Positions 10,127 to 63,111 of a stretch of DNA of 64,000 nt are shown here, one piece after another. This DNA comes from an uncultured Christensenellaceae bacterium (GTDB lineage: Bacteria; Bacillota; Clostridia; Christensenellales; UBA3700). Where the stretch lies: NCBI GenBank assembly GCA_944381365.1, contig CALWKW010000002.1:180719-244718 (forward strand), read 5' to 3'. Both the position numbers and the translations under genes were made by a program. The stretch's first letter is position 1, and each line of letters starts with the position of its first letter. The notes under the pieces are model-generated. The model was not told the DNA's origin. It saw nothing but the letters and a program-made list of their open reading frames with translations, and did no database searches.

Positions 10127-10167
10127 TAATATATACAATTTACCTAAGGCTTAAATTGTATATATTA
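10127..10167 (-). repeat. Dispersed spacer palindrome, copy 1
   Basis: TAATATATACAATTTA-CCTAAGGCT-TAAATTGTATATATTA; perfect 16-bp arms; spacer reads AGCCTTAGG on minus. Confidence 0.95.
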
Positions 10168-10199
10168 GACTCTCTTCGTGCGTGCATGCGTATATACGC

Positions 10200-10230
10200 A
10201 AAAGACGACTCATTTTACGAGTCGTCTTTT
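10200..10230. terminator. Bidirectional intrinsic terminator
   Basis: AAAAGACGACTC-ATTTTAC-GAGTCGTCTTTT downstream of the DUF1858 gene. Confidence 0.85.
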
Positions 10231-10250
10231 AATTTTAATAAAACTTTTAA

Positions 10251-10373
10251 GCCCTTGGAGATTAGTGCAGAGTTGCGATTTTGAAGAGAGTTCGCGAACG
10301 GAGCGTACTTTCCGTACGTGACTGAGCACAACTGCTCGCACTAAATTGCAAATATGTGCTGATATACAAGGGC
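10251..10373 (+). repeat. 123-nt long imperfect hairpin, MITE/REP-like element
   Basis: GCCCTTG...CAAGGGC termini; 33 stacked positions give 24 WC, 4 G-U, 5 mismatches; inner CGTAC/GTACG and GAGCA/TGCTC hairpins. Confidence 0.55.
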
Positions 10374-10380
10374 ACCATTA

Positions 10381-10587
10381 TTATTCTTCTCCAGCCACTT
10401 CGTTGAGTTTTTTTACAAGCTCATCTACATCAACGCCGTGCACCATAGCTGCCTCTTCGATTGTTTCGCCTCTTGCCATTGCACAACCAAAACAGTGCAT
10501 TCCTATGCTGAGCAAAGTTTCTGCGATAGCTTCTGCATTCTTATGCTGAAGTGCTTCTGCGATAAGCATGTCTTTTGTTATTGCCAT
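10381..10587 (-). CDS. DUF1858 domain protein
   Basis: 68 aa, GMHCFGCAMARGETIEEAAMVHG signature; AGGAGG RBS. Confidence 0.88.
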   Translation of the reverse strand: MAITKDMLIAEALQHKNAEAIAETLLSIGMHCFGCAMARGETIEEAAMVHGVDVDELVKKLNEVAGEE

Positions 10588-10652
10588 ATTATATGCCTCC
10601 TATAATCTTTTCGTATGTATTATAAACCATTATTGACATTTTGGCTATTATT

Positions 10653-11786
10653 TTACATAAAATATTTGATATAAATCCACACTGCCAAAGCCACAACCGC
10701 TCCAACCGCCAATACAATCGCCGATATCTTGAAAGGCGACTTGGGATATTTTCCTATAATCTTGCCCGTGCGTCCGTTGGCTATACAGCCGTATGTCTTT
10801 TTTTGGTACTTATAGCTGAATACCCATATCGGCACCAAAATGTATTTGTAGGTAATGTCATTGTATGAATTGTTCATATTGACATAATCCACTACATCCG
10901 CATTGTATCTGGATATTATCATCTGCTTGATGACTGAGTCCATTATGACTACTGCATCGGAAAAACTCTCATCCAAGCTCCTGTCATATCTTTCTGCCGA
11001 ATATCCGCTTATGAATTGATTGTGATAACTCGATGCATTGTCTGTATCGAATCCGCCAAGCTTGCTCAAAGTTTTTTGGTCTATGCTCTTGCTGGCTTCT
11101 ACCTGAACATCATTGAAAAAATTGGATATTACACCGCTGTCGAGATACCAACGGGTACGAGTCTCCGTGCGTCTGTTTTTTCCCGTGCCTACCGTGACGG
11201 TATAATGCTTGCCGTATCTTATGGTATAAGTGCCGTTGCACATACTGTCAAAAGTAAATACAGGTATATAAACTCCCTGACTAGGCTGTTTGCTAGCTTC
11301 CTTTTTAAGCTTGAAGGGTGCAAGATGTTTGCCTTTGAGCCATTTTTTATAATATACATGCACATCTTCTTTGCTTATTCTGAACGGAAGAATGCCGTTT
11401 GGCTGAAGTCCGGGGATTTCATCAAGCTCGACTATATTCGATGCCCCGCAAAAAGGACATTTTGCCGCTGTCTCGTATTGAGAAAGCATTGTTACCGCCC
11501 CGCATGAACGGCATCTTATGCTTTTTACTCCCTGCCAAGCTATAAACTGATTTTCTACATTCTGATGATACGGCAGCTCTTTTGCATCTTCCACAGCTTG
11601 AAGTTCGACAAGAGTGTCGCAATATTCACACTTGAGTTTATTGCTTTTGGGATCATAAGACAAAAAGTTTCCGCAGTTAGGACATTTGTATATTTTGCTT
11701 TCGAGAATTTCCTCTTGTTTTTCTTGCTGAGCTTCTTGTACTTTGTTTTCGCTATCAATAATGTTCGGATTGTTCTGATTTTCCAT
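10653..11786 (-). CDS. Zinc-ribbon membrane-anchored protein (YdjG-like)
   Basis: Four CxxC motifs N-terminal; NGRTGK motif; C-terminal TM helix; next to an SPFH gene. Confidence 0.7.
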   Translation of the reverse strand: MENQNNPNIIDSENKVQEAQQEKQEEILESKIYKCPNCGNFLSYDPKSNKLKCEYCDTLVELQAVEDAKELPYHQNVENQFIAWQGVKSIRCRSCGAVTMLSQYETAAKCPFCGASNIVELDEIPGLQPNGILPFRISKEDVHVYYKKWLKGKHLAPFKLKKEASKQPSQGVYIPVFTFDSMCNGTYTIRYGKHYTVTVGTGKNRRTETRTRWYLDSGVISNFFNDVQVEASKSIDQKTLSKLGGFDTDNASSYHNQFISGYSAERYDRSLDESFSDAVVIMDSVIKQMIISRYNADVVDYVNMNNSYNDITYKYILVPIWVFSYKYQKKTYGCIANGRTGKIIGKYPKSPFKISAIVLAVGAVVALAVWIYIKYFM

Positions 11787-11800
11787 TTTATCCTCGCTGA

Positions 11801-12940
11801 TTATTGTTTAGCTCCGCATTCAGGACAGAACTTCTGATTGGATTTGAGTTTTGCTCCGCATTCTTTACATACTCTTTCGTTCAAATTCGCACCGCACTCG
11901 GGACAGAATTTGACTTTTGTTCCTATCTCCGCTCCGCAGGAAGGACAAACCTTCTTGGGAGGCTTCATTGTCTGACCGCATTCAGGACAGAACTTCGCCT
12001 TCTTGCCTACACTTGCTCCGCAGTTGGGACATGTAAGTTTTTCTTCCGGCTCTTTTACAGCAGTAGGATTGCTCACTGTCGCCATATTGTCGGCAAATAC
12101 CTTTCCAAATCCGAGACCGGCTCCAAGACCGATACCCATACCGCTTACTCCGTTGGGATTCTTTGCGGCGTCTCTCATAGCCTCGAGAGTCTCCATCTGA
12201 GCATGCTGCTGCATTACTCCGCTCATCACGCCGACATTCGTACGCTTGTCGAGCATCTTCTCCACTTCTTCGGGCAAAGAGAGATTTTCGATATACAAAG
12301 ACTTTATCTCTATACCTATCTTTTCAAATTCCTCTGCCATCTTTTGCTTTGCCATTTCAGCAAGCTCGTCATAGCTTGCCGCAAGGTCAAGAGCGGGAAT
12401 TTTTGATTCTGCTATTACATTGGACAAAGTAGATGTGATTATCTTTTTGAAATAATCGTCTACATTCTTAACCGTATAGTTGTTCATCGAGCCGATAAGT
12501 TCTCTCAATGCGTTTGTAGGCGTGCCTACCGAGAAAGAGTAAACGCCAAAGCCTCTTACTCTCACCATGCCGAAATCCTTATCTCTCATCATGATAGGGT
12601 TGGCAGTACCCCACTTCATATTCGTAAACTGCTTTGTCGATACGAAATATACATCTCCCGTATAAGGGCTTTCCCAAAGATATTTCCAATTATACAACTG
12701 CGTCAACAAAGGCAGGTTTTTTATATCATCGAGTTTATATGTACCGGGACCGAACACATCGGCAAGCTTACCTTCTTGTATAAACATCGCCTTTTGTCCT
12801 TCTCTTACTACGAGAACGGACTTTTTCATAATCTCCTCTTTTTTCTCGAGAGGATATTTATAAATTATGTCGTTTTCGTTGTCGCTTTCCCATTGAATTA
12901 CTTTTCTGAATTGTTTTTTCAAAAAACTTCCGAATCCCAT
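11801..12940 (-). CDS. SPFH-domain protein with C-terminal zinc ribbons (YdjI-like)
   Basis: KWGTANPI and GMVRVRGFG motifs; three CxxCG...KFCPECG repeats. Confidence 0.85.
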   Translation of the reverse strand: MGFGSFLKKQFRKVIQWESDNENDIIYKYPLEKKEEIMKKSVLVVREGQKAMFIQEGKLADVFGPGTYKLDDIKNLPLLTQLYNWKYLWESPYTGDVYFVSTKQFTNMKWGTANPIMMRDKDFGMVRVRGFGVYSFSVGTPTNALRELIGSMNNYTVKNVDDYFKKIITSTLSNVIAESKIPALDLAASYDELAEMAKQKMAEEFEKIGIEIKSLYIENLSLPEEVEKMLDKRTNVGVMSGVMQQHAQMETLEAMRDAAKNPNGVSGMGIGLGAGLGFGKVFADNMATVSNPTAVKEPEEKLTCPNCGASVGKKAKFCPECGQTMKPPKKVCPSCGAEIGTKVKFCPECGANLNERVCKECGAKLKSNQKFCPECGAKQ

Positions 12941-13140
12941 AATTGTATCTCCTTTTTTTTGTCAATTGACATTCTATATATATTTTAATATGTATTGTAT
13001 TATTATGTCAAGATGTAATTTTTAAAGCTTATGACAAATTTACGATAAATATATATCAAAATCTTGTTTTTATCTTGCCGTTGTTGTGACAGCTTTCGAC
13101 AAAATTGAATATAAATTATTTTTACGGCATATTATTTGGT

Positions 13141-14583
13141 ATGACAAAAAATATTTCTGATTTCATCAAAAAACTATGTTGTTTTGTATGCACTCTTTTG
13201 TGTATATTTTGCATAATACCCTTTGCAGCCTGCGAAAAGGATATTAAAGAGCCCGATACTACATATTCGATATGGCTTGACATAAGAGAAGACAAAATAT
13301 ATTGCACGCAAAGTGTATCTTTTGTCAATAAAAGCGAATATATCCTCGACAATCTTGTGTTTAATGTCTATGCAAATGCCTACGATTCGTCAAAGCCTTT
13401 GCCATGCACTTCTCAAGAAGAGCAAGACGCATATCCAAACGGAGTCAGCTTTGGCAAATTCGAGCTTGACAATGTCTATGGCGACTTCAAAAGCTATAAT
13501 TTTGACAGCGACAAAAATCTCATCACAATAATGCTCGATAAAGATTTATTGCCAAACCAAAGCACAAAAATAGAATTTGTCTATACTCTTGTGCCGCCAA
13601 ACACGAATTTGAGATACGGCTACAACGATATCTGCCTATCTCTCACAGGTTTTTATCCTCAACTTTGTGCACTCGTGGACGGCGAATGGTTTTCAAGAGA
13701 ATTTTCTCCGATAGGAGATCCCTATTTCAGCGATACTGCCGATTATGAGGTATGCTTCAATCTTCCTGACGAATGTCAATATGTTTGCAGCGGATTGTCA
13801 GATACAGAGGAAAAACAAGGAGAGACTTTTGTCTATACCAAAGCAAGCGATATAAGGGATTTTGCAATCATCATATCGCCCGTCCTCGACAAAACAATGA
13901 CGATACACAACGGCGTGGAGATAAGCTATTTGGGAAAATCTTCTGAAGTCGTAGAATACGCAAAAAAAGCCTTGGACACTTACAGCGAGATTTTCGGAGA
14001 ATATGCGTACGATTCTTTGGCTCTTGCAAACATACCCTTTTTGGCGGGAGGTATGGAGTACGGAGCTTTGTGCGTGCTCAATGACCAGCTTACGGGCATA
14101 GACACAGAAAGCGTGACAGCTCACGAGGTAGCACACGAGTGGTGGTACTCCGCCTTGGGAAGCAACAATCTTATAGACGCTTGGCAGGACGAAGGACTTG
14201 CCGAGTATTCGACATATCTTTATTTTGAAAAAAACGGCAGAAAGGATGTCGCAGATTTACTTCTAAATGACGCTTATGTGCAATACGGAAACTTTAAAGA
14301 ACTCGGCATAAAAGTAGGCGAACCCGTGACAGGTATGCTGGCAGGCGAACTTAATTCTTTTGCAAGCAATTATCACTATACAAATCTTACCTACAACAAA
14401 GCATTCATATTGTGGGACTACGCATCGAACTGTATGGGAAAAGATAATCTTCTGAAAGCACTGAGATATTATTATTTGTCAAACAAGTTTGCTATCGCAA
14501 CGCCCGATGATTTGTATAATGCTCTGGACAATACAAAAGCGGGAACAAGCTCGATTCTCAAAAGCTGGATAAATAATTGTTGA
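13141..14583 (+). CDS. M1-family zinc aminopeptidase, probable lipoprotein
   Basis: GGMEY, HEVAHEWW and downstream DEGLAEY; lipobox-like FAAC; ATG 13141 preferred over TTG 13105. Confidence 0.85.
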   Translation: MTKNISDFIKKLCCFVCTLLCIFCIIPFAACEKDIKEPDTTYSIWLDIREDKIYCTQSVSFVNKSEYILDNLVFNVYANAYDSSKPLPCTSQEEQDAYPNGVSFGKFELDNVYGDFKSYNFDSDKNLITIMLDKDLLPNQSTKIEFVYTLVPPNTNLRYGYNDICLSLTGFYPQLCALVDGEWFSREFSPIGDPYFSDTADYEVCFNLPDECQYVCSGLSDTEEKQGETFVYTKASDIRDFAIIISPVLDKTMTIHNGVEISYLGKSSEVVEYAKKALDTYSEIFGEYAYDSLALANIPFLAGGMEYGALCVLNDQLTGIDTESVTAHEVAHEWWYSALGSNNLIDAWQDEGLAEYSTYLYFEKNGRKDVADLLLNDAYVQYGNFKELGIKVGEPVTGMLAGELNSFASNYHYTNLTYNKAFILWDYASNCMGKDNLLKALRYYYLSNKFAIATPDDLYNALDNTKAGTSSILKSWINNC

Positions 14584-14620
14584 GATAAATCGTCAAGGCA
14601 AAATATTCCATAATAAAAAT

Positions 14621-14650
14621 GTATAAAACTTTATATCATTTTCCATAATA
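14621..14650 (+). promoter_or_regulatory. Putative sigmaG (forespore) promoter
   Basis: GTATA-N18-CATAATA matches the B. subtilis sigmaG consensus; ~40 bp before the small Q/N-rich ORF. Confidence 0.6.
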
Positions 14651-14689
14651 AAAGTGTAGTCTTAAAGACTAACAAAACAGGAGGATAAT

Positions 14690-14803
14690 ATGAAGAATTA
14701 TCAATCACAACAACAGAATCAATCAAACAATCAGAAGAACAAGACCAATAGCAACGGTCAATCTCAACCCAGCAACTGCCAAAACTGCGGCAAGAACAAC
14801 TAA
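14690..14803 (+). CDS. 37-aa Gln/Asn-rich small protein, probably spore-associated (not in ORF track)
   Basis: MKNYQSQQQNQSNNQKNKTNSNGQSQPSNCQNCGKNN; AGGAGG RBS; own promoter and terminator. Confidence 0.8.
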   Translation: MKNYQSQQQNQSNNQKNKTNSNGQSQPSNCQNCGKNN

Positions 14804-14826
14804 TTGTAAGGTTGAACAACACAAAT

Positions 14827-14857
14827 AAAAAGGCGGGGAGCGATTCCCCGTCTTTTT
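14827..14857. terminator. Bidirectional intrinsic terminator
   Basis: AAAAAGGCGGGGA-GCGAT-TCCCCGTCTTTTT. Confidence 0.85.
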
Positions 14858-14910
14858 AAAGTTATGGATAGGTCGTCATTTAGACCTTGTAATGGCTTTT
14901 GTCATCAATA

Positions 14911-14939
14911 ATTCTATAAGAAGATTTCTTCTTTGTCAA
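14911..14939 (-). promoter_or_regulatory. SigmaA promoter divergent from the XRE gene, with a palindromic operator-like site in the spacer
   Basis: TTGACA-N17-TAGAAT on minus; AAGAAG-ATTT-CTTCTT at 14918-14933. Confidence 0.6.
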
Positions 14940-14973
14940 GCTTTTTCAAGAATTTTTCTTCTATACTTGAACT

Positions 14974-15171
14974 ATGAATATAGGCGAAACGATAAAAGAA
15001 TTAAGAATAGAGAGAAATCTATCACAACAAAAACTTGCATCGGCTATCGGCGTAAGTCAAAAAGCCATAGACTATTGGGAGCGAGGCGTCAACGAACCTA
15101 AGGCTAGTTATGTAGCTCTTCTTGCCGACTTTTTCAATGTCAGCTGCGATTATTTGCTGGGAAGAGAATAA
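14974..15171 (+). CDS. Solo XRE-family helix-turn-helix regulator
   Basis: IKELRIERNLSQQKLA..IGVSQKAIDYWERG..EP and VSCDYLLG; no SD, TATACT 6 nt before ATG. Confidence 0.92.
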   Translation: MNIGETIKELRIERNLSQQKLASAIGVSQKAIDYWERGVNEPKASYVALLADFFNVSCDYLLGRE

Positions 15172-15204
15172 AATCGCAATCATATCTTTAATATTTGAAA
15201 TTAT

Positions 15205-15229
15205 GCGGTCTTAATAGACCGCTTTTTTT
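15205..15229 (+). terminator. Intrinsic terminator of the XRE gene
   Basis: GCGGTCT-TAAT-AGACCGC followed by T7. Confidence 0.85.
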
Positions 15230-15295
15230 ATTACCAAATCTACTAAAAAGGGTTATCTCAACGCATGTGCAGGCGTGCGTGCGTATTGTTTACTT

Positions 15296-15336
15296 TAATT
15301 TATACAATTTAAGTCTTGGGTAAATTGTATAAATTA
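15296..15336 (+). repeat. Dispersed spacer palindrome, copy 2
   Basis: TAATTTATACAATTTA-AGTCTTGGG-TAAATTGTATAAATTA; perfect 16-bp arms. Confidence 0.95.
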
Positions 15337-15582
15337 TTTATTATATATTATATAAGCAAATTATATAGGCTGTAATATTGGCATTGGATAGGGGGCGATT
15401 TTGCGAATTTATAACGGCTGCCTTGAATCCATAACTATTTATCAACTCGTTGCGACCTTAAAAAGAGTGTTATTTTTGCTTTTTCAAGACATACTGCGAC
15501 AAGAGCATACTTTATGCATGTGACTTAAAAGGAGTGTTGCATATAAAAGCAAAAAAGCACGCCCTTATACAAGTTAGCACCC

Positions 15583-15699
15583 AAAAAGAAAGCCGGCACA
15601 GCATTTCTGCTGTGCCGACTTCCAATTATATGATAAGGGGGAAAATTATGAGCTATTTATGTCTGTAAACTTATTTACTTGTTCGTAAATCTTATTTAC
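15583..15699 (-). ncRNA. Candidate trans-acting sRNA (~117 nt) with C-rich anti-SD-like segment
   Basis: TTGACA-N17-TATATT with extended -10 TG (15706-15734); TTTTCCCCCTTA; CGGCACAGCA/TGCTGTGCCG terminator with U tract; no SD-led ORF. Confidence 0.65.
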
Positions 15700-15984
15700 A
15701 GGCATAATATACCACCCTAAAAAATTTTTGTCAACAGTTTTTTCAAAGAATTTTAAAGATTTTACATTATTTTAATAAATTTAGTTTTTTTAGCTCAATT
15801 TTCTTCTAATTTTTAAGATTTTTTTAATATATCACTATTTTTTGCCTTTTATTTTTAATATTTTGTTTACAAATTTTACTTTTATCATAAAAAAGACCGC
15901 CTTTTGGTAAATATATTCTCAAAAGACGGTTGTTTTTTTAATTCAATTTTTACTTTTATGATAAACTAAGAAGTTTTTATTCTG

Positions 15985-19237: not shown

Positions 19238-19399
19238 TTTATCTCCTTGCTTTAGGTAATTATACCTTGGTGTATTTTTTGTCCCCTCTTATTAAAAGTT
19301 TTTATCAATATAATATATTTTGTCAAGCATGTTTGTTTGCGACAAAACAAAGTCTTTACTTAATTATTTTATATCGCAATCGCTATGATTTTAGGCATA

Positions 19400-19891: not shown

Positions 19892-19919
19892 AATTATTTT
19901 GTTTTTATATAATATTGAT

Positions 19920-21203: not shown

Positions 21204-21206
21204 TGA

Positions 21207-22037: not shown

Positions 22038-22038
22038 A

Positions 22039-27655: not shown

Positions 27656-27808
27656 TTGACCTCCGTTTACTTATACTATTATATAATAACATAAAAGTTT
27701 TTAAATTAAAAGAAATATGCGATGTTTTTTTATTTTTATATATATTTTATTTTAGCATTTTCAAATCGGATAGATTTTATCATGATTTGTCATGGTTTCT
27801 GATATATA

Positions 27809-27847
27809 TATTTATATAATTTACCTAAGACTTAAATTATATAAATA
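27809..27847 (-). repeat. Dispersed spacer palindrome, copy 3
   Basis: TATTTATATAATTTA-CCTAAGACT-TAAATTATATAAATA; perfect 15-bp arms with compensatory C>T/G>A. Confidence 0.93.
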
Positions 27848-39537: not shown

Positions 39538-39566
39538 AAAATCCGAGCGAAAACCGCTCGGATTTT
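39538..39566. terminator. Bidirectional terminator between convergent genes
   Basis: AAAATCCGAGCG-AAAAC-CGCTCGGATTTT. Confidence 0.88.
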
Positions 39567-39657
39567 ATTTTGATTTATGAATATTTTTTGATTTTAAAAG
39601 ACTTGATTACTGATAATATATTACGCATACGCATTAAAATAATATAATATTCTACTA

Positions 39658-39696
39658 TATTTATACAATTTAAGCCTTAGGTAAATTGTATAAATA
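39658..39696 (+). repeat. Dispersed spacer palindrome, copy 4
   Basis: TATTTATACAATTTA-AGCCTTAGG-TAAATTGTATAAATA; perfect 15-bp arms. Confidence 0.95.
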
Positions 39697-39728
39697 GGGG
39701 ATCGCATGTATGCGTGCGTACAAAATAC

Positions 39729-40589
39729 CTAATCAAGCTTTTTTGTATCGTCTTCTTCTATCTTGTTTTCGCTGTTATCTTTTGCAGACTGCTCGAGCTT
39801 GAGTGCTTCTTTCTTACTGACATAACTTCTTATCCAAGGTATTATACCTATATCGAAATCTGCATCTGCAAGCATTTTGCCTTTTTCTTCTCTCGATTTG
39901 AATAGCTTTGAATTTACTACATAATACAGACAAAGTATTCCCACTACCACAAATGCGATCACTATTGCACTTATTACCTTAACCGCAGCACTTGCCGAAG
40001 GTATCACATAAGTGATGATTTCGCCCGTAATAATTTTAATGATAATCATATTGTCCGTTCCGTCAAAATTCTTATATATGACACCATTATGTATAAGTAC
40101 CGATACAAGCACCATTATTGCTACGCCTATAATAGGCACATAAATTTCTTTGATTTTGTATTTGTCGACATTGCATAGCAAAAGCAAACCGCAGAAAAAC
40201 AATACACTATGCTGTATTACCGCCATTACGATATAAAACACGCTTGATGTATCACTTACTATCGAATCCGGTGCGGCAATACCCGCTACTATATAAGCTA
40301 CTCCCGCAAGTGCCGAACAGAATCCTGCATAAGCTCGCATCTTTTTTATACCAAGCACAAAAGTAAAACCTAATACAAAATACGACATTTGCGAAAATTC
40401 TATGGGATACATAGATTTGCCGATAATGCGATAAACACTGAACTCTATCGTCTTGTAAACTAGCAAAACAAGACCGATTACAAAAAGAATAATAATGCTG
40501 ATTTTTCTTTTATCTCTCAAAAGCCAAGTTAAAAAAACAGCCAAAACACCAGCAAGCACTATAATAAGTGCCAACCACCAATACTCCAT
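39729..40589 (-). CDS. Integral membrane protein (possibly YwaF/TMEM164-like)
   Basis: About 7 hydrophobic segments; GGAGGTG RBS. Confidence 0.7.
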   Translation of the reverse strand: MEYWWLALIIVLAGVLAVFLTWLLRDKRKISIIILFVIGLVLLVYKTIEFSVYRIIGKSMYPIEFSQMSYFVLGFTFVLGIKKMRAYAGFCSALAGVAYIVAGIAAPDSIVSDTSSVFYIVMAVIQHSVLFFCGLLLLCNVDKYKIKEIYVPIIGVAIMVLVSVLIHNGVIYKNFDGTDNMIIIKIITGEIITYVIPSASAAVKVISAIVIAFVVVGILCLYYVVNSKLFKSREEKGKMLADADFDIGIIPWIRSYVSKKEALKLEQSAKDNSENKIEEDDTKKLD

Positions 40590-40948: not shown

Positions 40949-41024
40949 GCTAACGTGGCGCAGTAGGTAGCGCACATCATTGGTAATGATGAGGTCGGCA
41001 GTTCAAATCTGCTCGTTAGCTCCA
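40949..41024 (+). tRNA. tRNA-Thr(GGT)
   Basis: 76 nt cloverleaf: GCTAACG/CGTTAGC acceptor stem, CATCA-TTGGTAA-TGATG anticodon arm, GTTCAAATC T loop, encoded CCA. Confidence 0.97.
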
Positions 41025-41028
41025 AAAT

Positions 41029-41052
41029 ACCACCATTTATGGTGGTTTTTTT
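41029..41052 (+). terminator. Intrinsic terminator after tRNA-Thr (duplicated at ~41251-41273)
   Basis: ACCACCA-TTTA-TGGTGGT followed by a T tract. Confidence 0.88.
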
Positions 41053-41246: not shown

Positions 41247-41372
41247 AAATACCACCATTTATGGTGGTTTTTTGTTTGTAAGCTACCACTACATATTTTT
41301 ATTAAGCGATTATATGAATAAAAGAGCCTTGATAGTCAAAGCTCTTTTTGATATTTTATCAATCACATTTTT

Positions 41373-47090: not shown

Positions 47091-47126
47091 AAAAACAAGA
47101 CAGCTTGCATTTGCGAGCTGTCTTGT
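47091..47126. terminator. Terminator between convergent hydA and phosphatase genes
   Basis: ACAAGACAGCTTGC/GCGAGCTGTCTTGT stem with an A tract on the left. Confidence 0.8.
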
Positions 47127-47161
47127 GCGTATATGCGGATGCACGATAAGATAATTACTTC

Positions 47162-47202
47162 TAATTTATACAATTTAAGCCTTAGGTAAATTGTATAAAT
47201 TA
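47162..47202 (+). repeat. Dispersed spacer palindrome, copy 5
   Basis: TAATTTATACAATTTA-AGCCTTAGG-TAAATTGTATAAATTA; perfect 16-bp arms. Confidence 0.95.
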
Positions 47203-47238: not shown

Positions 47239-48344
47239 TTATTTGCTTATGATTGACTTGCAAAGCCAAGCTATCTGAGTATTGTCAATCACTTTAGGAA
47301 AATCCATATTTATATCGCCAAATACAAAATAAGGTACATTTGCCGAAGAATGCTCGCCCCTTGTGTACATGCCGTCATTGAGTTCTGAATCGCTCTCGCC
47401 GTTGTACTGAAGTCCGCCTGTTTCGTGGTCAGCCGTGACTATTACTACCGTATTTCCCAAAGCCTTTGCATATTCTACTACGGCTTTGATCGTGTTGTCA
47501 TAAGCCTTGACATGGCTTAGTGCTCCGTCAAGATCGTTTATATGACTGCACTTATCGATATGGCTCTCTTCTATCATCATAAAGAAGCCGTCTTCATCAG
47601 TCGAAATCTTGTCCAAAGCAATGGTAGCAAGATTTGCAAGAGTAGGTTTTTTATCTCCTCCGTCCTCGAGAGGTATTTCCTCAAATGAAGCAAAAACTTT
47701 ATCTTTGGACATATCCAAAGTGCTTATGCTGTCAGAAAAATCATATCCGCTTTTTCTATTTTGTCGCTCAAAGAAGCATATCTTTGAATATTGCTGCCGA
47801 AGAAAATATCTATATTGCTTTTGAGCTGGTCATCCAATATTCCGTCAATATCATTTCTGGAAGATGTATGAGCCGAGAATCCCGAGGGAGTAGCTCCGTC
47901 TACGCCTTCAGTGGCAAGTATAGCCGTGCTCATTCCAAGCGATACGGCAAGTTCTGTGGTGGATTGTTTTTCCTTGCCGAGATACTGACCTATATTTCCA
48001 TTGTCAGTCTTTGTGCCTGTGGCAAGTGCCGTAGCAGCAGCCGCACTGTCGGTAGGTCCAAACAAATTGCGGGAAAAAGTAGTCACTTCGCCTTTTATGG
48101 TAGCACTGTTCATAAACAATTCACCGTACCTAGCTTCCGCAGCTTTTATGTGATTGAATCCCATTCCGTCCCCTATCATGAGGATTACATTGAGCTTTTC
48201 TCCCTCATAATCGAGTTTTTCGATATTGTTGATTTTTACTGCTCTTGCTATACCCATCGATGCAAATACGACAGATATAATCAATATCACTGCAATTAAA
48301 GCAATTGCCGTGATTTTTATAATTCTTTTTTTTGTATTTTCCAT
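47239..48344 (-). pseudogene. Alkaline phosphatase split by a 1-nt frameshift
   Basis: 5' ORF has IGDGMG, TDSAAAATALATG and ATP; 3' ORF has FFMMIEE.HID..SH and VTADHETGG; adding one A at the A5 run (T5 at 47751-47755) joins them as IEKSGYDFSD. Confidence 0.85.
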
Positions 48345-48575
48345 AATTACCCTCGAATTATTTTTTATAATTATAGCACAACAAAACAAACTAAACAATA
48401 TCAAAAAATAAAAGTTTGATATTTATATAAACTTTGAAAAGATTTTGTAAGTTTTTTGTTATTTTTTATAAAATCCAAATTAGATATAAAAAAACTTTTA
48501 CTTTGCGATTGATTTGACCTTTATTATATATATATGTTAAAATATTTTATGTACTAATTAAACAAGGTGGACATT

Positions 48576-54284: not shown

Positions 54285-54433
54285 ATATCCTCCTAGCCTG
54301 CTAGGCAAAAATTTTTTTCTTTTTGGATTTTCGATATGTATTATATCAAATTAATTTGCATATTGCTACTATAATATAAAAGTTTTTACCAAATTTTTCA
54401 AAATGAATAAATTTTTATATCATTTTATTGTTT

Positions 54434-57400: not shown

Positions 57401-58324
57401 TCGTCTTATGTAGTGGACATCGTTTGTAGCGACAAGCTTGACATTGAGCTCTTTTGCAAGTCTTACGAGATCGTCTCTTATACGGCGTTGCTCTTCAAGA
57501 CCGTGGTCCTGAAGCTCGATATAAAAGTCGCCTTCCTCAAACATGTTTTTGAGTTTTGTGGCATACTCTTTTGCTCCTTCATAGTCGCCCATGAGAAGCA
57601 ATCTGGGAATTTTGCCCGAAAGACAGGCAGATAGACATATTACGCCTTTTGAGTGTTTTGCAAGTAAGTCAAGGTCAATTCTCGGCTTATAATAAAATCC
57701 GTCTATGTACGCAAGCGAATCCATCTTTACAAGATTGCGGTATCCTTCATTGTTTTTGGCAAGAAGTACCAAGTGATTACGCTCGTTGCTGTCAGTACTG
57801 TACATATTTTCGCATGTATAGAATTCACAGCCAATTACAGGATTGAGGTTTCGCTCCTGTGCCGCCTTGTAGAATGTATATGCTCCAAACATATTTCCGT
57901 GGTCAGTAAGTGCACAACCTGGCAAACCCAATTTTACGCATTCGTCAAGCAAAGGAGAATCGTGTCCTTTTGTTATTCTTGCAAGTCCGTCCAAAAGAGA
58001 ATATTCTGAGTGGACATGCAAATGTATAAAAGGCTTTTTGTCGTTTTCTTTTTTTACCTTTTCTTCTTTATCGGATTTGTCCTCTTTTTTGTCTTTTTTC
58101 TCCTCTGCTTTTTTATCTTTAGTTTGGTCGTTGTCTGATTTTTTTGCATCGGAAGAATTGTCCTCAGCTTTTTCTGACGACTCGATTTTTTCTTTATCGG
58201 ATTTTTCTTTTTGGATATCTTCAGAAATTGTCTTGGCTTTATGCTCGGGCTTGTCCGACTCCATCATCTTGTCAAGACTATCCAAAAGTCCTCCGCTGAT
58301 ATCTTCAAATTTATTCTCTTCCAT
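54434..58324 (-). CDS. dnaE: DNA polymerase III alpha subunit DnaE with ~97 aa charged N-terminal extension
   Basis: PHP motif HLHVHSEYSLLDG; GRGSG; PDFDVDF; KMDFLGL; YAFNKSHAAAY. Confidence 0.97.
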   Translation of the reverse strand: MEENKFEDISGGLLDSLDKMMESDKPEHKAKTISEDIQKEKSDKEKIESSEKAEDNSSDAKKSDNDQTKDKKAEEKKDKKEDKSDKEEKVKKENDKKPFIHLHVHSEYSLLDGLARITKGHDSPLLDECVKLGLPGCALTDHGNMFGAYTFYKAAQERNLNPVIGCEFYTCENMYSTDSNERNHLVLLAKNNEGYRNLVKMDSLAYIDGFYYKPRIDLDLLAKHSKGVICLSACLSGKIPRLLLMGDYEGAKEYATKLKNMFEEGDFYIELQDHGLEEQRRIRDDLVRLAKELNVKLVATNDVHYIRREDYVSQDLLVRINTGKTINDVTGMEMGSDQFYLKSYEEMKEIFSWCPEALTNTIEVMNKCHVIIEKEDLYPPYTPEDGSTPPEYLRKLAYEGLERRYGTITDEIRERAEYELGIIIRTGFAEYYLIVWDFINYARTQKIPVGPGRGSGVGSIIAYAIGITNLDPLKYSLIFERFLNPERVSAPDFDVDFCMDRRGEVIEYVIRKYGKEKVCQILALGTMKAKGAIKDVARVYNVPLDIVNATTKLIPNAPGVTLDKVLGRSKSTKEEDLKLKNPEVIEIYNNNPEMHRVIDMALNIEGLPRNCSKHAAGVVICKEVISDHVPLQRNGPDITTQFQKEEVEQLGMLKMDFLGLTTLTDIDKALKYVKENHGVEIDFDKLGYEDEEVYKLIGTGETEAVFQLESAGMKSFLKSYQPKNLEEVIAGISLYRPGPMSCIPDYLNARANRDLIQYDAPQLEKILDVTFGFFVYQEQVMQAVQYCAGYTMGRADNLRRAMGKKKVEVMNAEKTVFINGCPAVPEKRNEQGIVIQKAAPAVEGAIHRGISKEKAEKIFDTMADFAKYAFNKSHAAAYATLTYQTAYLKRYYMLELFAAVINNRITKSDEIAKYLAYVKNYNKKVYPPDINKSSVIFTVENNDGLRFGLGGIKNVGEAAMQAVVEERKKNGEYKSISDLLSRLPAGTVNKKMVECLIKAGAFDCFGHTRAAMMASYESIMLVNMYDKKMQANGQISLFGLLDEEEQSTEDNIPYLKEFPDKQLLSMEKEMLNVYVSGHPLDEYREEMQKYDFNLSKLSDILSKNLDEDELEESDIELINQYENKDVVFGCMMSGIQKKTTKSGTIMAYAKLEDLYAEIEGVVFPKMYDKYRDLLVNDNIVMIRGTVKRNNGKININITEIQPWNKNEEQTQTDNPAQEHKVNASSQKVYIKIDDMKSYREVLDLIELFPGVTPVVFKMFYDSKAQLYSKGVTVKENFVNRIKAIVGANNIVVKDMK

Positions 58325-59255
58325 CGTATTCTCCCTCTGCTATCTCCAATATCTTGTTGAGAGCTCTCGACAAACTCGTCTTGCTCATTGACAATTTGTC
58401 TGCAAGCTCTTTCATGCTGTCCTCTTTGTTTTCAAGTCTTGCTATGGCTATCTTCTTGAGTTTTGCATCAAGACTTTCTATGAGTCCTTTTTCCTCCAAA
58501 AATTTTATGGCGTCAGTGTATTTTTTTACACCTGCCAGCATTTTGTTGTAATTAGCCATATAAAAATTGCTCATTCTGTTGAATTCGTTTTCGTTTTCTC
58601 TTTGAGCAAGAATATTGTTGAGCTCCAAGACGCAATTATTTGCATTGCACATCGCAAGGATATCCGCTATATCGCTGCTGTTTCTCGATTGCAAAATCTG
58701 TCCCGTCTTGGTGTCAGTTTGTTTTAGCTCTATGTTATAGCCTGCCATTTTGTCAGAAAAAGCCTTGCAATACTCTTCATCGCTGAAGGATATCTGCAAA
58801 GAATAGTTTGAGTATTCCTCATCGGGAAACCTGAGTTTTCCCGTCACAAGCAAAAGACCTTTGAGATATGAATAAAAAAGTTTGTCATCATTCAAAGACA
58901 AAAGATATTTTACTCCGTTGTCCACCACAAAATTATCTTCTTCATAGTGGCTGAGATGCAATGTTTTTAGCAATTCGTCTGCCGAATTGTCCTTTACCTC
59001 TATTCTGTATACGCTTTCGCCTCTTGCACCTTTTTGCACAAAAAACACATCTTCTTTGCAAAATTCTCTCACTATCGGCAATACAGCAAGGGCATCGTCT
59101 TTTGACTTGAATTCATAAGTAAGCGTGACTGATTTTTTGTACAACTCGATTACGCCGCAAATTTTTGTCACGGCGACAAGAAAAGGAAGCTTATGCTCCC
59201 CGTCTTTGGGTATCTTTTCGATAATATCTTTTTTGAGTCGGTCAGTAAAATCCAT
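58311..59255 (-). CDS. whiA: DNA-binding protein WhiA (divergent)
   Basis: YLKG LAGLIDADG-like helix; NR..N...AN; C-terminal HTH; position upstream of dnaE. Confidence 0.8.
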   Translation of the reverse strand: MDFTDRLKKDIIEKIPKDGEHKLPFLVAVTKICGVIELYKKSVTLTYEFKSKDDALAVLPIVREFCKEDVFFVQKGARGESVYRIEVKDNSADELLKTLHLSHYEEDNFVVDNGVKYLLSLNDDKLFYSYLKGLLLVTGKLRFPDEEYSNYSLQISFSDEEYCKAFSDKMAGYNIELKQTDTKTGQILQSRNSSDIADILAMCNANNCVLELNNILAQRENENEFNRMSNFYMANYNKMLAGVKKYTDAIKFLEEKGLIESLDAKLKKIAIARLENKEDSMKELADKLSMSKTSLSRALNKILEIAEGEYDGRE

Positions 59256-59313
59256 AGCTTTTAATTCTCTTATGTCTATACTGAAAAATATCAGCTAAAA
59301 TACTTTTTCCCTT

Positions 59314-60075
59314 CTAACGCTTTGATCTCAAATCAAGCTTTTTGCCGCAAATGTTGGCAATTCTCTCTTCGGGGATATCAAATTTTTTCACAAGCTCCAA
59401 AGCAAAATCGCAGCTTGCTATGTTATCGGGTTTGTGTGCGTCAGAATTGATTACAAAATTGCAGTCTGTGGAAAGAAGCTGCTCTATGCTCTTATCGTCA
59501 GGAGTCTTGTGTCTTGACGATAGCTCCACATAAGTGCCGTAGTCCGCACATACCTTGCCCACTTCTTTATAGTCTATATCAAGTCTGAATCCGGGGTGAG
59601 TAAGAATGTCTATCTTGTGCCTTTTGATTGCGTTGACAAACATTGTGGTATTGCGTGCTATCTGTCCTTTTGTGGACTTCATAGTGTACTTTGTGAGAGC
59701 ATTCCAAGTAATTTTGAAATAATCGCTGAATTTATAGGGAAAAGATGTGAGATGATATCCTGCCAAGACAATATCGAGTTTTTTCATGTCATCGTCCTTG
59801 ACATCGATATCCCCCGCCATACCGAGTATATTTGCCTCTATACCCAAAAGAAGAGTGAGCGAATCAAAGTTCTTTTGCACTTCTTCAAGGTCCTTTCTCA
59901 TCTTGTCATACTTTTTGGGACTTACGCCGACAATAGGATGTCTTACGGCATGGTCAGTAATAGCCAGAATTTCCAAGCCTTTTTGGCTTGCGGCTTTTGC
60001 ATTGTCCATAATCGTACCGCTGCCGTGCGAATACCTCGTATGGGAATGATAATCAGCTGTCAGCCTAATATCCAT
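59314..60075 (-). CDS. PHP-domain phosphoesterase
   Basis: DYHSHT, ITDH, GIEANI and NSDAH motifs. Confidence 0.92.
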   Translation of the reverse strand: MDIRLTADYHSHTRYSHGSGTIMDNAKAASQKGLEILAITDHAVRHPIVGVSPKKYDKMRKDLEEVQKNFDSLTLLLGIEANILGMAGDIDVKDDDMKKLDIVLAGYHLTSFPYKFSDYFKITWNALTKYTMKSTKGQIARNTTMFVNAIKRHKIDILTHPGFRLDIDYKEVGKVCADYGTYVELSSRHKTPDDKSIEQLLSTDCNFVINSDAHKPDNIASCDFALELVKKFDIPEERIANICGKKLDLRSKR

Positions 60076-60123
60076 TACAGCTTGTCCTCCATTGTTTTTA
60101 CGGACAAAAGAATGTCCGAATAA

Positions 60124-60996
60124 TCAAAATATATCTACTTCATATTGTAGCTTAATATCAAATAGTTTGTCAACTTCTTGCCTTGCATAATTGCCAAGCT
60201 CGAGAAAGTCCGAAGCGGTCGCATTGCCTGTGTTGAGTATAAAATTCGCATGCTTTTCGGATATCTTTGCACCTCCAATCTTCATACCTTTCAAGCCCGC
60301 TTTGTCGATATAATATCCCGCCGATACTTCCCCTGCTTTTTTAAAAGTGCTGCCCAAAGATATACCCGAAGGCTGACTTTTTTGTCTTGCAAGCCTATAT
60401 GCCATCATATCCCTTGCGATAATATTTCTGTTCCCACGGCTCAATTCTATACATGCCCCGATTGCAATTCCTCGTTCTTTAAGGCAAGAGTGTCTGTAAG
60501 AAAAATCCATATTGCAAGCTTTTATTCTCTCTATTTCCCCGTCAACCAATATATCGACATACTCAATCACATCAGCGATTTGTCTGCCGTATGCCGAACA
60601 ATTCATTGCTATTCCCCCCCCTATCGTCCCCGGGATAGAGCACAATCCTTCAAGTCCGCTCAAGCCTCTTTCTAAGGCAAGTTTTGCAAGCTTTGGAAGG
60701 CTTTCGCCTGCATTGACATACAAGACATTTTCATTGCACTCGATACCTTTAAGCTCTTTTGTGCAAATGACCACTCCGTCAATGCCTTCATCCTTTATAA
60801 GCACATTTGTGCCATTGGCGATAATCTTATAATTTTCGCCTGCTCTTTTCAATAAGTCTACCGCCTGAATAAGCTCCCATTTGTCCGTAGGAAAAATCAC
60901 TGCACCTATGTTGCCGCCGCATCTGAATGCCGACAATGAAGGGTGCGAAAATACCACTTTAGAATCGAGTTCTGTCAAAAAAGATAATCTGTCCAT
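60124..60996 (-). CDS. murB: UDP-N-acetylenolpyruvoylglucosamine reductase
   Basis: GTNVL, GLEGL..IPGTIGG, GSTFK and SEKHANF motifs. Confidence 0.93.
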   Translation of the reverse strand: MDRLSFLTELDSKVVFSHPSLSAFRCGGNIGAVIFPTDKWELIQAVDLLKRAGENYKIIANGTNVLIKDEGIDGVVICTKELKGIECNENVLYVNAGESLPKLAKLALERGLSGLEGLCSIPGTIGGGIAMNCSAYGRQIADVIEYVDILVDGEIERIKACNMDFSYRHSCLKERGIAIGACIELSRGNRNIIARDMMAYRLARQKSQPSGISLGSTFKKAGEVSAGYYIDKAGLKGMKIGGAKISEKHANFILNTGNATASDFLELGNYARQEVDKLFDIKLQYEVDIF

Positions 60997-61086
60997 AATA
61001 AAGTATATTCTGGTAGATTAACTAATTATACAAATTCGTAATTATAAATTTATCATTAAAAAAAAGGAGGTTTCACCTCCTTTTTA

Positions 61087-61692
61087 TTAGAATTCTTTTT
61101 TATTATATATTTTCAGTGAAATAAAATAGGAAACAATGATTGACAACAATATAACAAATAAACTAATTATACTTATTATTGCTCCTGATGTTATATTTAT
61201 CTTTTTAAATACAAATTCTGCAATGCCTATCATAAAACATACAGCTATTAATATTATGGCAATAAGAAATATCCTTGATTTTTCAACTCCGAATTTATAA
61301 ATAGCAGGCAAACAACAAGAAATCACTATTATTTGAAACAATATAAGTATTACCAATTCTGCCCAAGAATTTTCTTGTGTTTTGATTAAAGCAAAAGCAA
61401 CTATGCTAAAAAGATTTGCTATAATCCCCACTCCTACTCCTATAACATATTTTTCCAGAACTATTATTTTAGGATTAAGACCACTGGCAGCAACAAATTT
61501 TGGCCAACTGTCTCTTTCTTCATAAGCGAATGTGGTCATAATTATGCTTATTTCACTCACAATTCCCATTGCATATAAATAACTTATATTTTTTAATAAT
61601 ACTGATACGACAAAACAAATGATTACTGTGGCTAAATACCATAAAATCATTTTTTTTGTATTACATAAATCTTTAATCAACAATCCTATCAT
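61087..61692 (-). CDS. ABC-2 transporter permease
   Basis: MIGLLIKD start; KFGVEKSR; about 6 TM; C-terminal YNKKEF. Confidence 0.88.
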   Translation of the reverse strand: MIGLLIKDLCNTKKMILWYLATVIICFVVSVLLKNISYLYAMGIVSEISIIMTTFAYEERDSWPKFVAASGLNPKIIVLEKYVIGVGVGIIANLFSIVAFALIKTQENSWAELVILILFQIIVISCCLPAIYKFGVEKSRIFLIAIILIAVCFMIGIAEFVFKKINITSGAIISIISLFVILLSIIVSYFISLKIYNKKEF

Positions 61693-62534
61693 ATATTTTC
61701 TCCTTTAGAATAAAACAGCATTATATCTTCGAGTTTCACAGGTCTGTATTCAAAATTTGCGGGCATAAGTTTTTTTATTGCCAACAAATCCAAGCCATAA
61801 CTTCTTCTCAGAATTTTTACTATTGCATTCTTGTCCAATTCTTTTAAAATTTTTTCTTCTATGCCATAAACAGCATATTTTTCTAAAATTTTATCTTTTT
61901 CTTCGTCCAATTCTATTTTTCCTTTATGCAAATAAACTATATAATCGCATAATTTTTCCAAATCAGATGTAATGTGCGAAGATATTAACACTGATTTTTT
62001 GCCGTCTTGAATATAATCATACAACATTGATAATATTTCATCTCTCACGACAGGATCAAGTCCGCTTGTAGGTTCGTCAAGAATTAAAACATCATTGTCA
62101 TAAGAAAATGCCACTGCCAAAGCGAGCTGCATTTTCATGCCTTTTGAAAATGACTTGATTGATTGTTTTTTAGGCAAATTAAATTTGTTTACATAACTAT
62201 TAAATTTGTCGCTATGCCAAGTAGAATATATATTTTTTAAAACCTTATCTAATGTATTTATATTTAACTCCAAAGGCAATCCCGTATCATCCAACACAAC
62301 CCCTATTTTTTGTCTTTCTGATTTAGAAAGGGTGTTTATTTCTTTCCCTTTAAAAAAGATTTGTCCGCTGTCCGGATGGATTGCATTTATGATTGACTTA
62401 ATAATTGTACTTTTTCCTGCTCCGTTTTCTCCTACAAGCCCGACCACTACTCCCTCGGGAATACTGAATGAGATGTTTTTCAAATTAAATTCGCTGTATT
62501 GTTTGCATACATTTTTTAATTCAACTATTTTCAT
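61689..62534 (-). CDS. ABC transporter ATP-binding protein (YtrB-like)
   Basis: GENGAGKST, FSKGMKMQ and LDEPTSGLDP motifs; start at MKIVE. Confidence 0.93.
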   Translation of the reverse strand: MKIVELKNVCKQYSEFNLKNISFSIPEGVVVGLVGENGAGKSTIIKSIINAIHPDSGQIFFKGKEINTLSKSERQKIGVVLDDTGLPLELNINTLDKVLKNIYSTWHSDKFNSYVNKFNLPKKQSIKSFSKGMKMQLALAVAFSYDNDVLILDEPTSGLDPVVRDEILSMLYDYIQDGKKSVLISSHITSDLEKLCDYIVYLHKGKIELDEEKDKILEKYAVYGIEEKILKELDKNAIVKILRRSYGLDLLAIKKLMPANFEYRPVKLEDIMLFYSKGENI

Positions 62535-62542
62535 ATTAAATA

Positions 62543-62914
62543 TCAACCTCTGTAAATTAATTTTACGCAATTTATAAATTCTTCTTCGCTAATATTGCAT
62601 CTTTTTGCCAAATCGCTTGCTTTCGATATACATTCTTCCATTTCAGCAAGATTTTTTTCTCTTATAAATTCTTTATTTTTCTCTGCTACAAAACTACCTT
62701 TTCCTACTACAGAATAAATATATCCGTCCCTCTCCAAATCAGCGTATGCCCTTGCCGTTGTAATAACACTTATTCTTAAATCTTTTGCAAGCCCCCTTAT
62801 TGTCGGTAAAGCTTGCCCTTCTTTTAGTGTAGAATCTAAAATCATGTTTTTTATCTGCTCATATATTTGTTCATATAATGACTTATCTGATGTATTTGAT
62901 ATAAATATATTCAT
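62543..62914 (-). CDS. GntR/YtrA-family regulator
   Basis: LYEQI, LPTIRGLA, RAYADLE and GKGSFV motifs; short C-terminus. Confidence 0.94.
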   Translation of the reverse strand: MNIFISNTSDKSLYEQIYEQIKNMILDSTLKEGQALPTIRGLAKDLRISVITTARAYADLERDGYIYSVVGKGSFVAEKNKEFIREKNLAEMEECISKASDLAKRCNISEEEFINCVKLIYRG

Positions 62915-62931
62915 TTTTTCCTCTTTATTGA

Positions 62932-62973
62932 ATTGTATATATTGATTATATACAATATGACATTAAATGTCAA
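62932..62973 (-). promoter_or_regulatory. SigmaA promoter overlapped by a YtrA-type operator
   Basis: TTGACA-N17-TATAAT on minus (62945-62973); ATTGTATAT-N7-ATATACAAT, equal to TGTA-N13-TACA, at 62932-62956. Confidence 0.85.
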
Positions 62974-62998
62974 TAGATTAATAAAAAAATTTTTAGTT

Positions 62999-63035
62999 AA
63001 AAAGACATGACTTTGTCATAAAGTCATGTCTTTTT
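62999..63035. terminator. Bidirectional terminator downstream of the GH13 gene
   Basis: AAAAAGACATGACTTT-GTCAT-AAAGTCATGTCTTTTT. Confidence 0.88.
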
Positions 63036-63070
63036 ATTAATTATATTATATTTATTCTTTTATCATATAG

Positions 63071-63111
63071 TTATTTATATAATTTAAGCCTTAGGTAAAT
63101 TATATAAATAA
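63071..63111 (+). repeat. Dispersed spacer palindrome, copy 6
   Basis: TTATTTATATAATTTA-AGCCTTAGG-TAAATTATATAAATAA; perfect 16-bp arms, compensatory variant. Confidence 0.95.

Follow-up and report, generated by a model that had tools for sequence, protein, structure and literature searches.

What function could be served by a short palindrome that recurs between functionally unrelated genes of one bacterial chromosome? This question is raised by a 64,000-nucleotide stretch of DNA (hereafter the window) from an uncultured Christensenellaceae bacterium, in which six intergenic copies of an inverted repeat surround an asymmetric 9-nucleotide spacer. The window spans positions 180719-244718 of contig C2 of the source genome (G000), a 1.86-Mb assembly of nine contigs (C1-C9). 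Source genomes in this study are metagenome-assembled genomes (MAGs) with unordered contigs. An initial inspection of the letters (the sequence-only reading) had proposed an uncharacterised, genome-wide cis element acting as a nucleoid or topology organiser, a recombination site array, or a non-autonomous mobile hairpin. Our analysis confirms an uncharacterised multi-copy element but restricts it to four species of a single uncultured Christensenellaceae genus and, within the source genome, to one part of the chromosome. The explanation that we tentatively prefer is a DNA hairpin or cruciform element that resembles the repetitive extragenic palindromic (REP) sequences and bacterial interspersed mosaic elements (BIMEs) of other bacteria, and that would be read by one putative specific protein.

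The pattern TATAYAATTTA-N9-TAAATTRTATA was searched in the window with up to two mismatches permitted and returned six matches, all without a mismatch, whose element limits equal those first described (Table 1). None of 100 dinucleotide-preserving shuffles of the window contained a match. The perfect arms of 15-16 bp also stood up, as did the orientation of the spacer: the loop AGYCTTRGG lies on the plus strand in four copies and on the minus strand in copies 1 and 3. Neighbouring copies are separated by 5.2-15.9 kb, where 5-16 kb had been reported. If folded as single-stranded DNA, each copy forms the expected hairpin, with predicted energies from −9.2 to −10.6 kcal/mol and z scores from −3.0 to −6.6.

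Across the source genome there are 27 exact copies, of which 15 are on C2, 10 on C6, and 2 on C3. When as many as five substitutions were allowed, these 27 remained the only matches below three mismatches, at and beyond which A+T-rich noise appears. Half copies of the palindrome are absent. Solo matches to one arm number 16, which is chance-like, and none are paired around a gene, while the central 21-mer has a single unrelated match. All copies are singletons, the closest pair being 1.5 kb apart. The copy-bearing region covers about 381 kb, or approximately 20% of the assembly, and on C2 it is confined to 160-377 kb. The proposal of a genome-wide element is therefore not sustained. No copies are present on C1 (537 kb), C4, C5, C7, C8, or C9. 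Mapping against the replication landmarks leaves both the origin contig and the terminus-like contig without copies: C7 carries dnaA and parB at a GC-skew switch and is the origin contig, whereas C1 has the opposite switch, from plus to minus, together with converging gene orientation, and is terminus-like. If 27 copies fell at random, the chance of finding none on C1 would be about 1e-4, which is a post hoc figure.

Among 41 relatives, the element is carried by 4 of 23 congeneric genomes and by none of the 18 from other genera. The source genome and its sister species G010, G014, and G021 contain 27, 23, 27, and 28 copies, respectively, and allowing two mismatches adds one copy in G010 and two in G014. 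A scan of 401 genomes of the order at two mismatches found many copies only in the three carriers sampled (27, 24, and 29), with fourteen other genomes each yielding one or two A+T-rich matches. When one genome per species was scanned, 61 of the 80 listed stretches (84 in total) were in three MAGs labelled as uncultured Christensenellaceae or Christensenella, and among the same 80 the family loop occurs in none of the 19 single matches from other taxa. It is likewise missing from all 93 arm-pattern matches at 13 viral loci and the best 80 of 113 metagenome loci. BLAST searches of plasmid and phage collections, with the low-complexity filter on, gave no match. The search for an analogous palindrome family in non-carrier species produced one candidate, from G022, with just two copies. 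Rfam has no match at any copy in the window at the gathering threshold, and none at E <= 1 around copy 1. We found no paper describing the family, and in the accessible part of PMC10201364 the 11-mers of the arms occur only as primers.

Comparison of the 101 copies from the four carrier genomes reveals which parts of the element are held constant. The core specifies 22 positions (1-11 and 21-31), of which 20 are invariant, and the exception is the pair 5/27 (92 copies with C-G, 7 with T-A, and 2 with T-G). The stem extends to 16 bp, and its outer pairs 0/32, -3/35, and -4/36 vary yet stay complementary. Thus four pairs (-4/36, -3/35, 0/32, and 5/27) covary with one or two exceptions each, unlike the tens of mismatched combinations that would be expected if the two arms varied independently. 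The loop has the consensus A-G-Y-C-T-T-R-K-G, with six positions almost fixed. That the inner stem does not vary speaks for recognition of its sequence.

The contrast between the stem and its surroundings is most evident when orthologous sites are compared. Of the 74 copies in the three sister species, 43 map to 16 of the 27 sites in the source genome. In the 24 orthologous pairs for which both flanks are colinear, stems are 97.3% identical, compared to 76.6% for the flanking coding DNA. The 60 nucleotides adjoining the stem are only 60.6% identical, which is no different from the null of 61.3 +/- 6.2% obtained with unrelated flanks. Because the stem remains near letter-perfect amid changed surroundings, something probably reads it. 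The loop behaves differently from the stem, being 74.5% identical in the better orientation and flipped in 10 of the 24 pairs. Together, covariation of the outer stem and flipping of the loop argue that the arms pair in the cell.

The outer stem also carries a record of descent. Orthologous sites agree in its type in 33 of 43 comparisons, versus a chance expectation of 0.30, which indicates that sites are inherited rather than re-inserted. Loops are identical in only 5 of the 43 comparisons (0.09 expected by chance). The preferred loop has shifted in an entire lineage: AGCCTTAGG is found in 13 of the 27 copies in the source genome and in 0-2 copies per genome elsewhere, whereas AGCCTTATG is found in 1 of the 27 and in 11-13 copies per genome elsewhere. 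Such a shift favours one trans-acting reader or biased conversion. Exchange between sites does occur, since four copies in the source genome (C2:313447, C2:323467, C2:330909, and C6:110705) share about 95 nucleotides of palindrome and A+T tract at 94-96% identity, and at least two of these occupy sites that are already filled in the sister species, indicating copying or gene conversion. In sister species G010, an inversion of 3 kb spans the interval from the orthologue of C2:336913 to that of C2:340182, and each of its junctions lies in a copy. Upstream of rpsJ, where copy 1 resides, only the last 200 or so nucleotides (the promoter and S10 leader) of non-carrier genomes align with the carrier, and no insertion boundary can be defined.

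The palindrome is the centre of a larger module. One flank is an A+T-only tract of approximately 30-35 nucleotides (about 97% A+T), in which comparison of 78 copies revealed no position-specific signal. The opposite flank is often an alternating purine-pyrimidine run that is G+C-rich and frequently itself palindromic. Alternating runs of at least 12 nucleotides are present within 55 nucleotides of 48 of the 101 copies, versus 30 of 2000 random intergenic windows. Genome-wide, the source genome has 23 alternating runs of at least 14 nucleotides, and 9 of these, which make up 9 of the 14 intergenic ones, are situated 28-58 nucleotides from a copy. The letters of these flanks are not conserved between species although their character is, which suggests that melting and structural transitions matter. 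The orientation of the loop relative to the A+T tract is preferred but not fixed (73 versus 28 copies). In the source genome, the A+T tract is to the left of the palindrome in 17 copies and to the right in 10, without a clear bias relative to the direction of replication. At some gaps the whole module, consisting of the G+C motif, palindrome, and A+T tract, is inverted between species.

Genomic context places these modules at the ends of genes rather than at their promoters. In the source genome, 34 of 53 gene ends facing copies are 3ˊ ends, and for 20 of 26 copies a gene reads toward the palindrome from the flank opposite the A+T tract. Of the 26 copies, 10 are in convergent gaps, which make up 14.4% of all gaps (p = 0.002) and contain 16.5% of intergenic bases (p = 0.006), and 2 are in divergent gaps. 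In the window, longest-ORF (open reading frame) calls agree with the sequence-only reading that all six copies are intergenic and that copies 2, 4, and 5 lie between convergent genes. Canonical terminator-like hairpins stand between genes and copies, and therefore the palindrome is mostly outside predicted transcription units. For six copies, a hairpin of this type is 67-74 nucleotides away and directly abuts the G+C motif.

The genes themselves share no theme. A Pfam scan of 50 neighbouring ORFs returned unrelated families, as had been claimed, including DUF1858, M1 peptidase, aminotransferase, aspartate carbamoyltransferase, DnaI-like loader, Fe-hydrogenase, KsgA, MetRS, GluRS, ribosomal protein S6, SSB, aldolase, and glycosidases, as well as regulators of the TetR, AraC, and Crp types. 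Despite the presence of several redox enzymes, these neighbours have no function in common, and with the excess of 3ˊ ends and the paucity of divergent gaps this leads us to reject an operator of one regulon. The sequence-only reading had similarly argued against an ordinary operator.

We suggest that an extragenic repeat peculiar to this clade, acting at the level of DNA, has the palindrome as its conserved core, and that it resembles REP and BIME sequences without the REP-associated tyrosine transposase (RAYT). The 16-bp arms would pair within a strand, forming either a hairpin in single-stranded DNA or a cruciform whose extrusion the A+T-only tract may help, and a single putative sequence-specific protein would read the inner 11 bp of the stem and the 9-nucleotide loop. 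Copies would reside in untranscribed gaps past terminators, preferentially convergent ones, and would be passed on mostly vertically, with occasional copying or homogenisation between sites and, now and then, service as rearrangement break points. We infer from these data that arms pair within the strand in vivo and that a protein reader exists, and any benefit to the host would be equally inferential, for instance a structural or topological boundary where transcription units end.

Several considerations weigh against this explanation. First, the restriction of copies to about one fifth of the chromosome is unexplained by it. The remaining 31 of the 74 sister copies map elsewhere, many to regions orthologous to C5, where the source genome has no copies. 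Also, in vivo pairing is supported indirectly, by covariation, loop flipping, a predicted DNA hairpin of about -10 kcal/mol, and the A+T flank, and intrastrand template switching, a mutational bias, could yield both covariation and flipping without selection for pairing. Copying or conversion between sites adds to the uniformity of the family, and thus selection at each site is not proven. Finally, neither a reader protein nor a clade-specific gene was identified, and the gene calls on which the context statistics depend come from a crude, longest-ORF caller.

The strongest rival, doubtful in our estimation, is a selfish, non-autonomous hairpin without host function, mobile or self-homogenising in the manner of REP sequences or miniature inverted-repeat transposable elements (MITEs), whose uniformity would reflect recent copying, conversion, and the sequence needs of a copying enzyme. 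This would account for the four near-identical copies, at least two of which have replaced or converted occupied sites, for subfamilies defined by the outer stem and by the loop, for differences between species in the presence or absence of copies, and for inversion of the whole module at the same gap. Copies are also enriched where insertions are least harmful, and the same genomes carry at least two further non-coding repeat families. However, decayed or half copies are lacking, 16 of the 27 sites are common to sister species with the outer stem kept in a site-specific manner, and the phage, plasmid, and viral collections that were searched yielded no copy.

An intact Y1/RAYT gene is also missing from the carriers. 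The only Y1 (PF01797) sequence in the source genome is a decayed ORF of 89 amino acids (C4:36405-36674) that matches just the ends of an IS200-type Y1 transposase. Of the sister species, G010 has no Y1 or RAYT sequence, and G014 and G021 have fragments, whereas two intact genes are present in the non-carrier G006. Only 7 of the 101 copies have GTAG or its complement within approximately 10 nucleotides outside the stem, and no target-site duplication was seen at the ends of the four young copies. A MITE was rejected given the missing target-site duplications and the lack of any arm pair around a gene, although DDE transposases were not searched. Membership of the REP/REPIN-RAYT group was rejected as well, as the carriers have no intact RAYT, the GTAG foot is missing, and there are 23-28 singletons rather than hundreds of copies or doublets; the sequence-only reading had likewise not recognised a known REP. 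Its suggestion of a mobile hairpin is partly borne out by the four related 95-nucleotide copies, but it conflicts with mostly vertical, orthologous sites and with the lack of target duplication, solo ends, or a Y1/RAYT partner.

A further reading assigns a role to each part of the module. Here, the Z-DNA-prone motif, the palindrome, and the meltable A+T tract would form a supercoil-driven switch past terminators that is read by a putative clade-specific hairpin-binding protein, and some 25 of these switches in a single chromosomal domain would mark or insulate the places where transcription units end. We regard this as an unlikely scheme. The earlier proposal of a nucleoid or topology organiser is compatible with the structure-prone flanking modules, but the regional restriction is a misfit for a general organiser.

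It is rather improbable that the palindrome is instead a duplex binding site for a dimeric nucleoid-associated or regulatory protein, with two 11-bp half-sites two helical turns apart and never a hairpin. The invariant inner half-sites, whose centres are 20 bp apart as read from the sequence, would suit such a dimer, as would the steady copy number of 23-28 per genome and the clustering of copies in one part of the chromosome, which resembles some chromosome-organising sites. However, a duplex-bound dimer does not need the covarying outer five positions of the stem, loop flipping is not explained, and copies mostly adjoin 3ˊ ends of functionally unrelated genes rather than promoters. CIRCE, the HrcA operator, is an inverted repeat with a 9-bp spacer that is found at heat-shock promoters in 2-3 copies per genome. 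The palindrome shares with it the spacer length and conservation far beyond its surroundings, but differs in its 23-28 copies and its location past terminators by unrelated genes. The chromosome-partitioning site parS was rejected, because the palindrome is unlike the parS-like sites at 56.6-58.3 kb of C7, which have 1-2 mismatches to the Firmicute consensus, and no copy is on C7. This agrees with the sequence-only reading, which had recognised neither parS nor dif.

An RNA element is an even poorer prospect. In read-through transcripts the palindrome might act as a back-up terminator or 3ˊ-end stabiliser, or it might supply the 5ˊ hairpin of a small RNA transcribed from the A+T tract as far as the neighbouring terminator. 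Consistent with this, the RNA hairpin is stable, with a predicted energy of -13.7 kcal/mol (z from -3.3 to -4.2), a three-hairpin fold reaches -35.4 kcal/mol (z -5.2), and the covarying pair 5/27 is T-G in two copies. The six hairpins located 67-74 nucleotides away have good T tracts and read away from the palindrome, and most copies face a gene 3ˊ end on the flank opposite the A+T tract. An intrinsic terminator was nonetheless rejected, because the stem has one G-C pair per 16 bp with no T run after it and separate canonical terminators precede the copies. With regard to a small RNA, sigma-70 promoter searches inside or beside the palindrome gave nothing beyond weak 9-of-12 matches, and the A+T tract lacks a signal at a fixed position. 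The variable orientation of the loop, both relative to the module and between orthologues, and the lack of an Rfam family further disfavour this explanation.

Least likely is that the copies form an array for site-specific recombination. The palindrome has the layout of loxP and dif, with inverted arms that flank a directional spacer, and the inversion in G010 has both junctions in copies, but the spacer of 9 bp is of odd length and exceeds the 6-8 bp of those sites, and 27 active sites amid housekeeping genes would be harmful. Junctions that are not colinear with the source genome number 9 of 54 with a copy versus 6 of 72 without, yet these events are not independent, some correspond to another inserted repeat, and any dispersed repeat draws rearrangements. 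The source genome has a single tyrosine recombinase (PF00589; C1:97723-98790, open frame of 359 amino acids), and its location at the terminus-like skew switch indicates that it is probably a single-recombinase Xer system. No palindrome-like site is within 2 kb of this gene, and a loxP- or dif-type site was rejected accordingly. The five resolvase-domain genes do not adjoin copies, except that one is 2-4 kb from the copy at C3:144769. In the window, no match to a tyrosine recombinase, resolvase-type serine recombinase, or Y1 transposase was found, which upholds for these classes the earlier statement that it lacks recombinases and transposases; DDE transposases were not searched.

Among known systems, the palindrome works most like REP/BIME mosaics and REPIN populations, yet every feature of REP-family membership that we looked for came out otherwise. 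Like the elements of Enterobacteria and Pseudomonas, it is a short multi-copy extragenic palindrome that is located mostly at 3ˊ ends and in convergent gaps, forms mosaics with other motifs, and is uniform within a lineage. The differences are its perfect arms, its conserved loop, its occurrence as about 25 singletons rather than hundreds of doublets, and its Firmicute host. A GTAG-like tetranucleotide at the foot of the hairpin is a feature of REP sequences and REPINs that is not conserved here, and the carriers have no intact Y1/RAYT gene. The subterminal hairpins of IS200/IS605 elements and their PATE derivatives are imperfect, form left and right pairs, and are served by a Y1 transposase. 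The palindrome resembles these in having a DNA hairpin as the functional unit and no target duplication, but it is a single perfect hairpin in a genome with a decayed Y1 remnant. In plastid non-coding hairpins, a short loop enclosed by perfect inverted repeats has flipped many times, independently in different lineages. The same flipping is observed here, although the plastid cases are mutational curiosities of single hairpins rather than a conserved multi-copy family. REPINs are inherited mostly vertically and persist for millions of years, according to the accessible parts of two reports (10.1101/2022.05.22.493013; PMC8049555).

Table 1. Palindrome copies and associated sequence features of the window (window positions; nt, nucleotides; aa, amino acids)
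Feature	Position	Strand	Remarks
Palindrome copy 1	10127..10167		Core starts at 10132; 16-bp perfect arms; plus-strand loop CCTAAGGCT; DNA hairpin -10 kcal/mol, z -5.5
Palindrome copy 2	15296..15336		Core starts at 15301; 16-bp arms; loop AGTCTTGGG; between convergent ORFs and their two terminator-like hairpins
Palindrome copy 3	27809..27847		Core starts at 27813; 15-bp arms, T..A arm variant; plus-strand loop CCTAAGACT
Palindrome copy 4	39658..39696		Core starts at 39662; 15-bp arms; loop AGCCTTAGG; convergent gap, 36 nt from end of 286-aa ORF
Palindrome copy 5	47162..47202		Core starts at 47167; 16-bp arms; loop AGCCTTAGG; convergent gap past Fe-hydrogenase gene
Palindrome copy 6	63071..63111		Core starts at 63076; 16-bp arms, T..A variant; loop AGCCTTAGG
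Alternating purine-pyrimidine G+C-rich motif by copy 1	10177..10200		24 nt; forms own hairpin in part
Alternating purine-pyrimidine G+C motif by copy 2	15273..15286		
Alternating purine-pyrimidine G+C motif by copy 4	39703..39722		
Alternating purine-pyrimidine G+C motif by copy 5	47124..47137		
A+T-rich tract by copy 1	10082..10126		Side opposite G+C motif; 89% A+T over 45 nt
A+T-rich tract by copy 2	15337..15381		82% A+T
A+T-rich tract by copy 4	39612..39656		80% A+T
A+T-rich tract by copy 6	63026..63070		89% A+T
Canonical terminator-like hairpin with A and T tracts	10200..10230		Between DUF1858 gene and copy 1; abuts G+C motif
Terminator-like hairpin of upstream plus-strand gene	15205..15222	+	Ends short of copy 2
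Terminator-like hairpin of convergent minus-strand gene	15588..15623	-	Ends short of copy 2
Terminator-like hairpin of DnaI-like gene	39538..39566	+	Ends short of copy 4

Two additional non-coding repeats were encountered in these genomes. The first, of approximately 110-125 nucleotides, forms a long imperfect hairpin and is present in the window at 10257-10367 and elsewhere in the source genome at C5:9966-10074, C5:10182-10303, C5:30218-30340, C2:518886-518994, and other positions. It has about 12 matches in the source genome, mostly not by a palindrome copy, and Rfam returned only far-sub-threshold matches. The three sister species contain many more copies of this repeat, often about 30 nucleotides from a palindrome copy. 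The other repeat, of about 145 nucleotides (C7:72060-72356), has tandem and dispersed copies on C1, C5, C6, and C7 at 92-97% identity. It is inserted in palindrome-holding gaps of sister species, and its Rfam matches are also far below threshold.

With respect to base composition, two 20-kb bins of low G+C content, at 300-320 kb of C2 (0.336) and 120-140 kb of C3 (0.295) compared to approximately 0.38, are possibly islands, and the C2 bin adjoins near-identical palindrome copies. The DNA sequencing runs in which the stretch was detected come from chicken-gut metagenomes, and two runs with an RNA-Seq label were judged to be probably DNA. In public metagenome data, contigs stop at the palindrome or jump from one copy to another at 10127-10169, 15295-15336, and 27802-27809 of the window, indicating that the element breaks short-read assemblies of the source organism.

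Other features near copies in the window also merit mention. Upstream of rpsJ, a candidate S10-Clostridia ribosomal protein leader on the minus strand (9426-9501) scores 33.2 bits, against an Rfam gathering threshold of 35.1, and copy 1 is about 600 nucleotides further upstream. The 286-amino-acid ORF that terminates 36 nucleotides from copy 4 (39732-40589, minus strand) has no Pfam match, and BLASTN detected no equivalent of it at the orthologous position of any of the three sister genomes. Near copy 5, a 159-amino-acid ORF (47242-47718, minus strand) aligns with the 423-position alkaline phosphatase profile at positions 235-326 only and abuts a same-strand ORF (47724-48404, minus strand), and thus the gene may be split or frameshifted. 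Finally, an 18-nucleotide terminator-like hairpin occurs twice (41029-41046 and 41251-41268), 222 nucleotides apart, immediately after tRNA-Thr (40949-41024), which suggests a local duplication.

Extragenic palindromes are known chiefly from Proteobacteria, in which the RAYT transposase explains their persistence. The family described here is an extragenic palindrome of a Firmicute clade that combines a 41-bp hairpin, syntenic sites, and conservation beyond that of protein-coding genes with no RAYT. The retention of stem pairing, the flipping of the loop, and the shift of the preferred loop point to a reader or copier of DNA hairpins that has yet to be discovered. The palindrome is also regularly accompanied by flanks whose physical properties, not their letters, are selected, which makes it a compact natural test of whether non-B DNA plays a role at the ends of bacterial transcription units. 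Even if the palindrome is just a selfish repeat, it would still help to track rearrangements and assembly breaks in these gut genomes.

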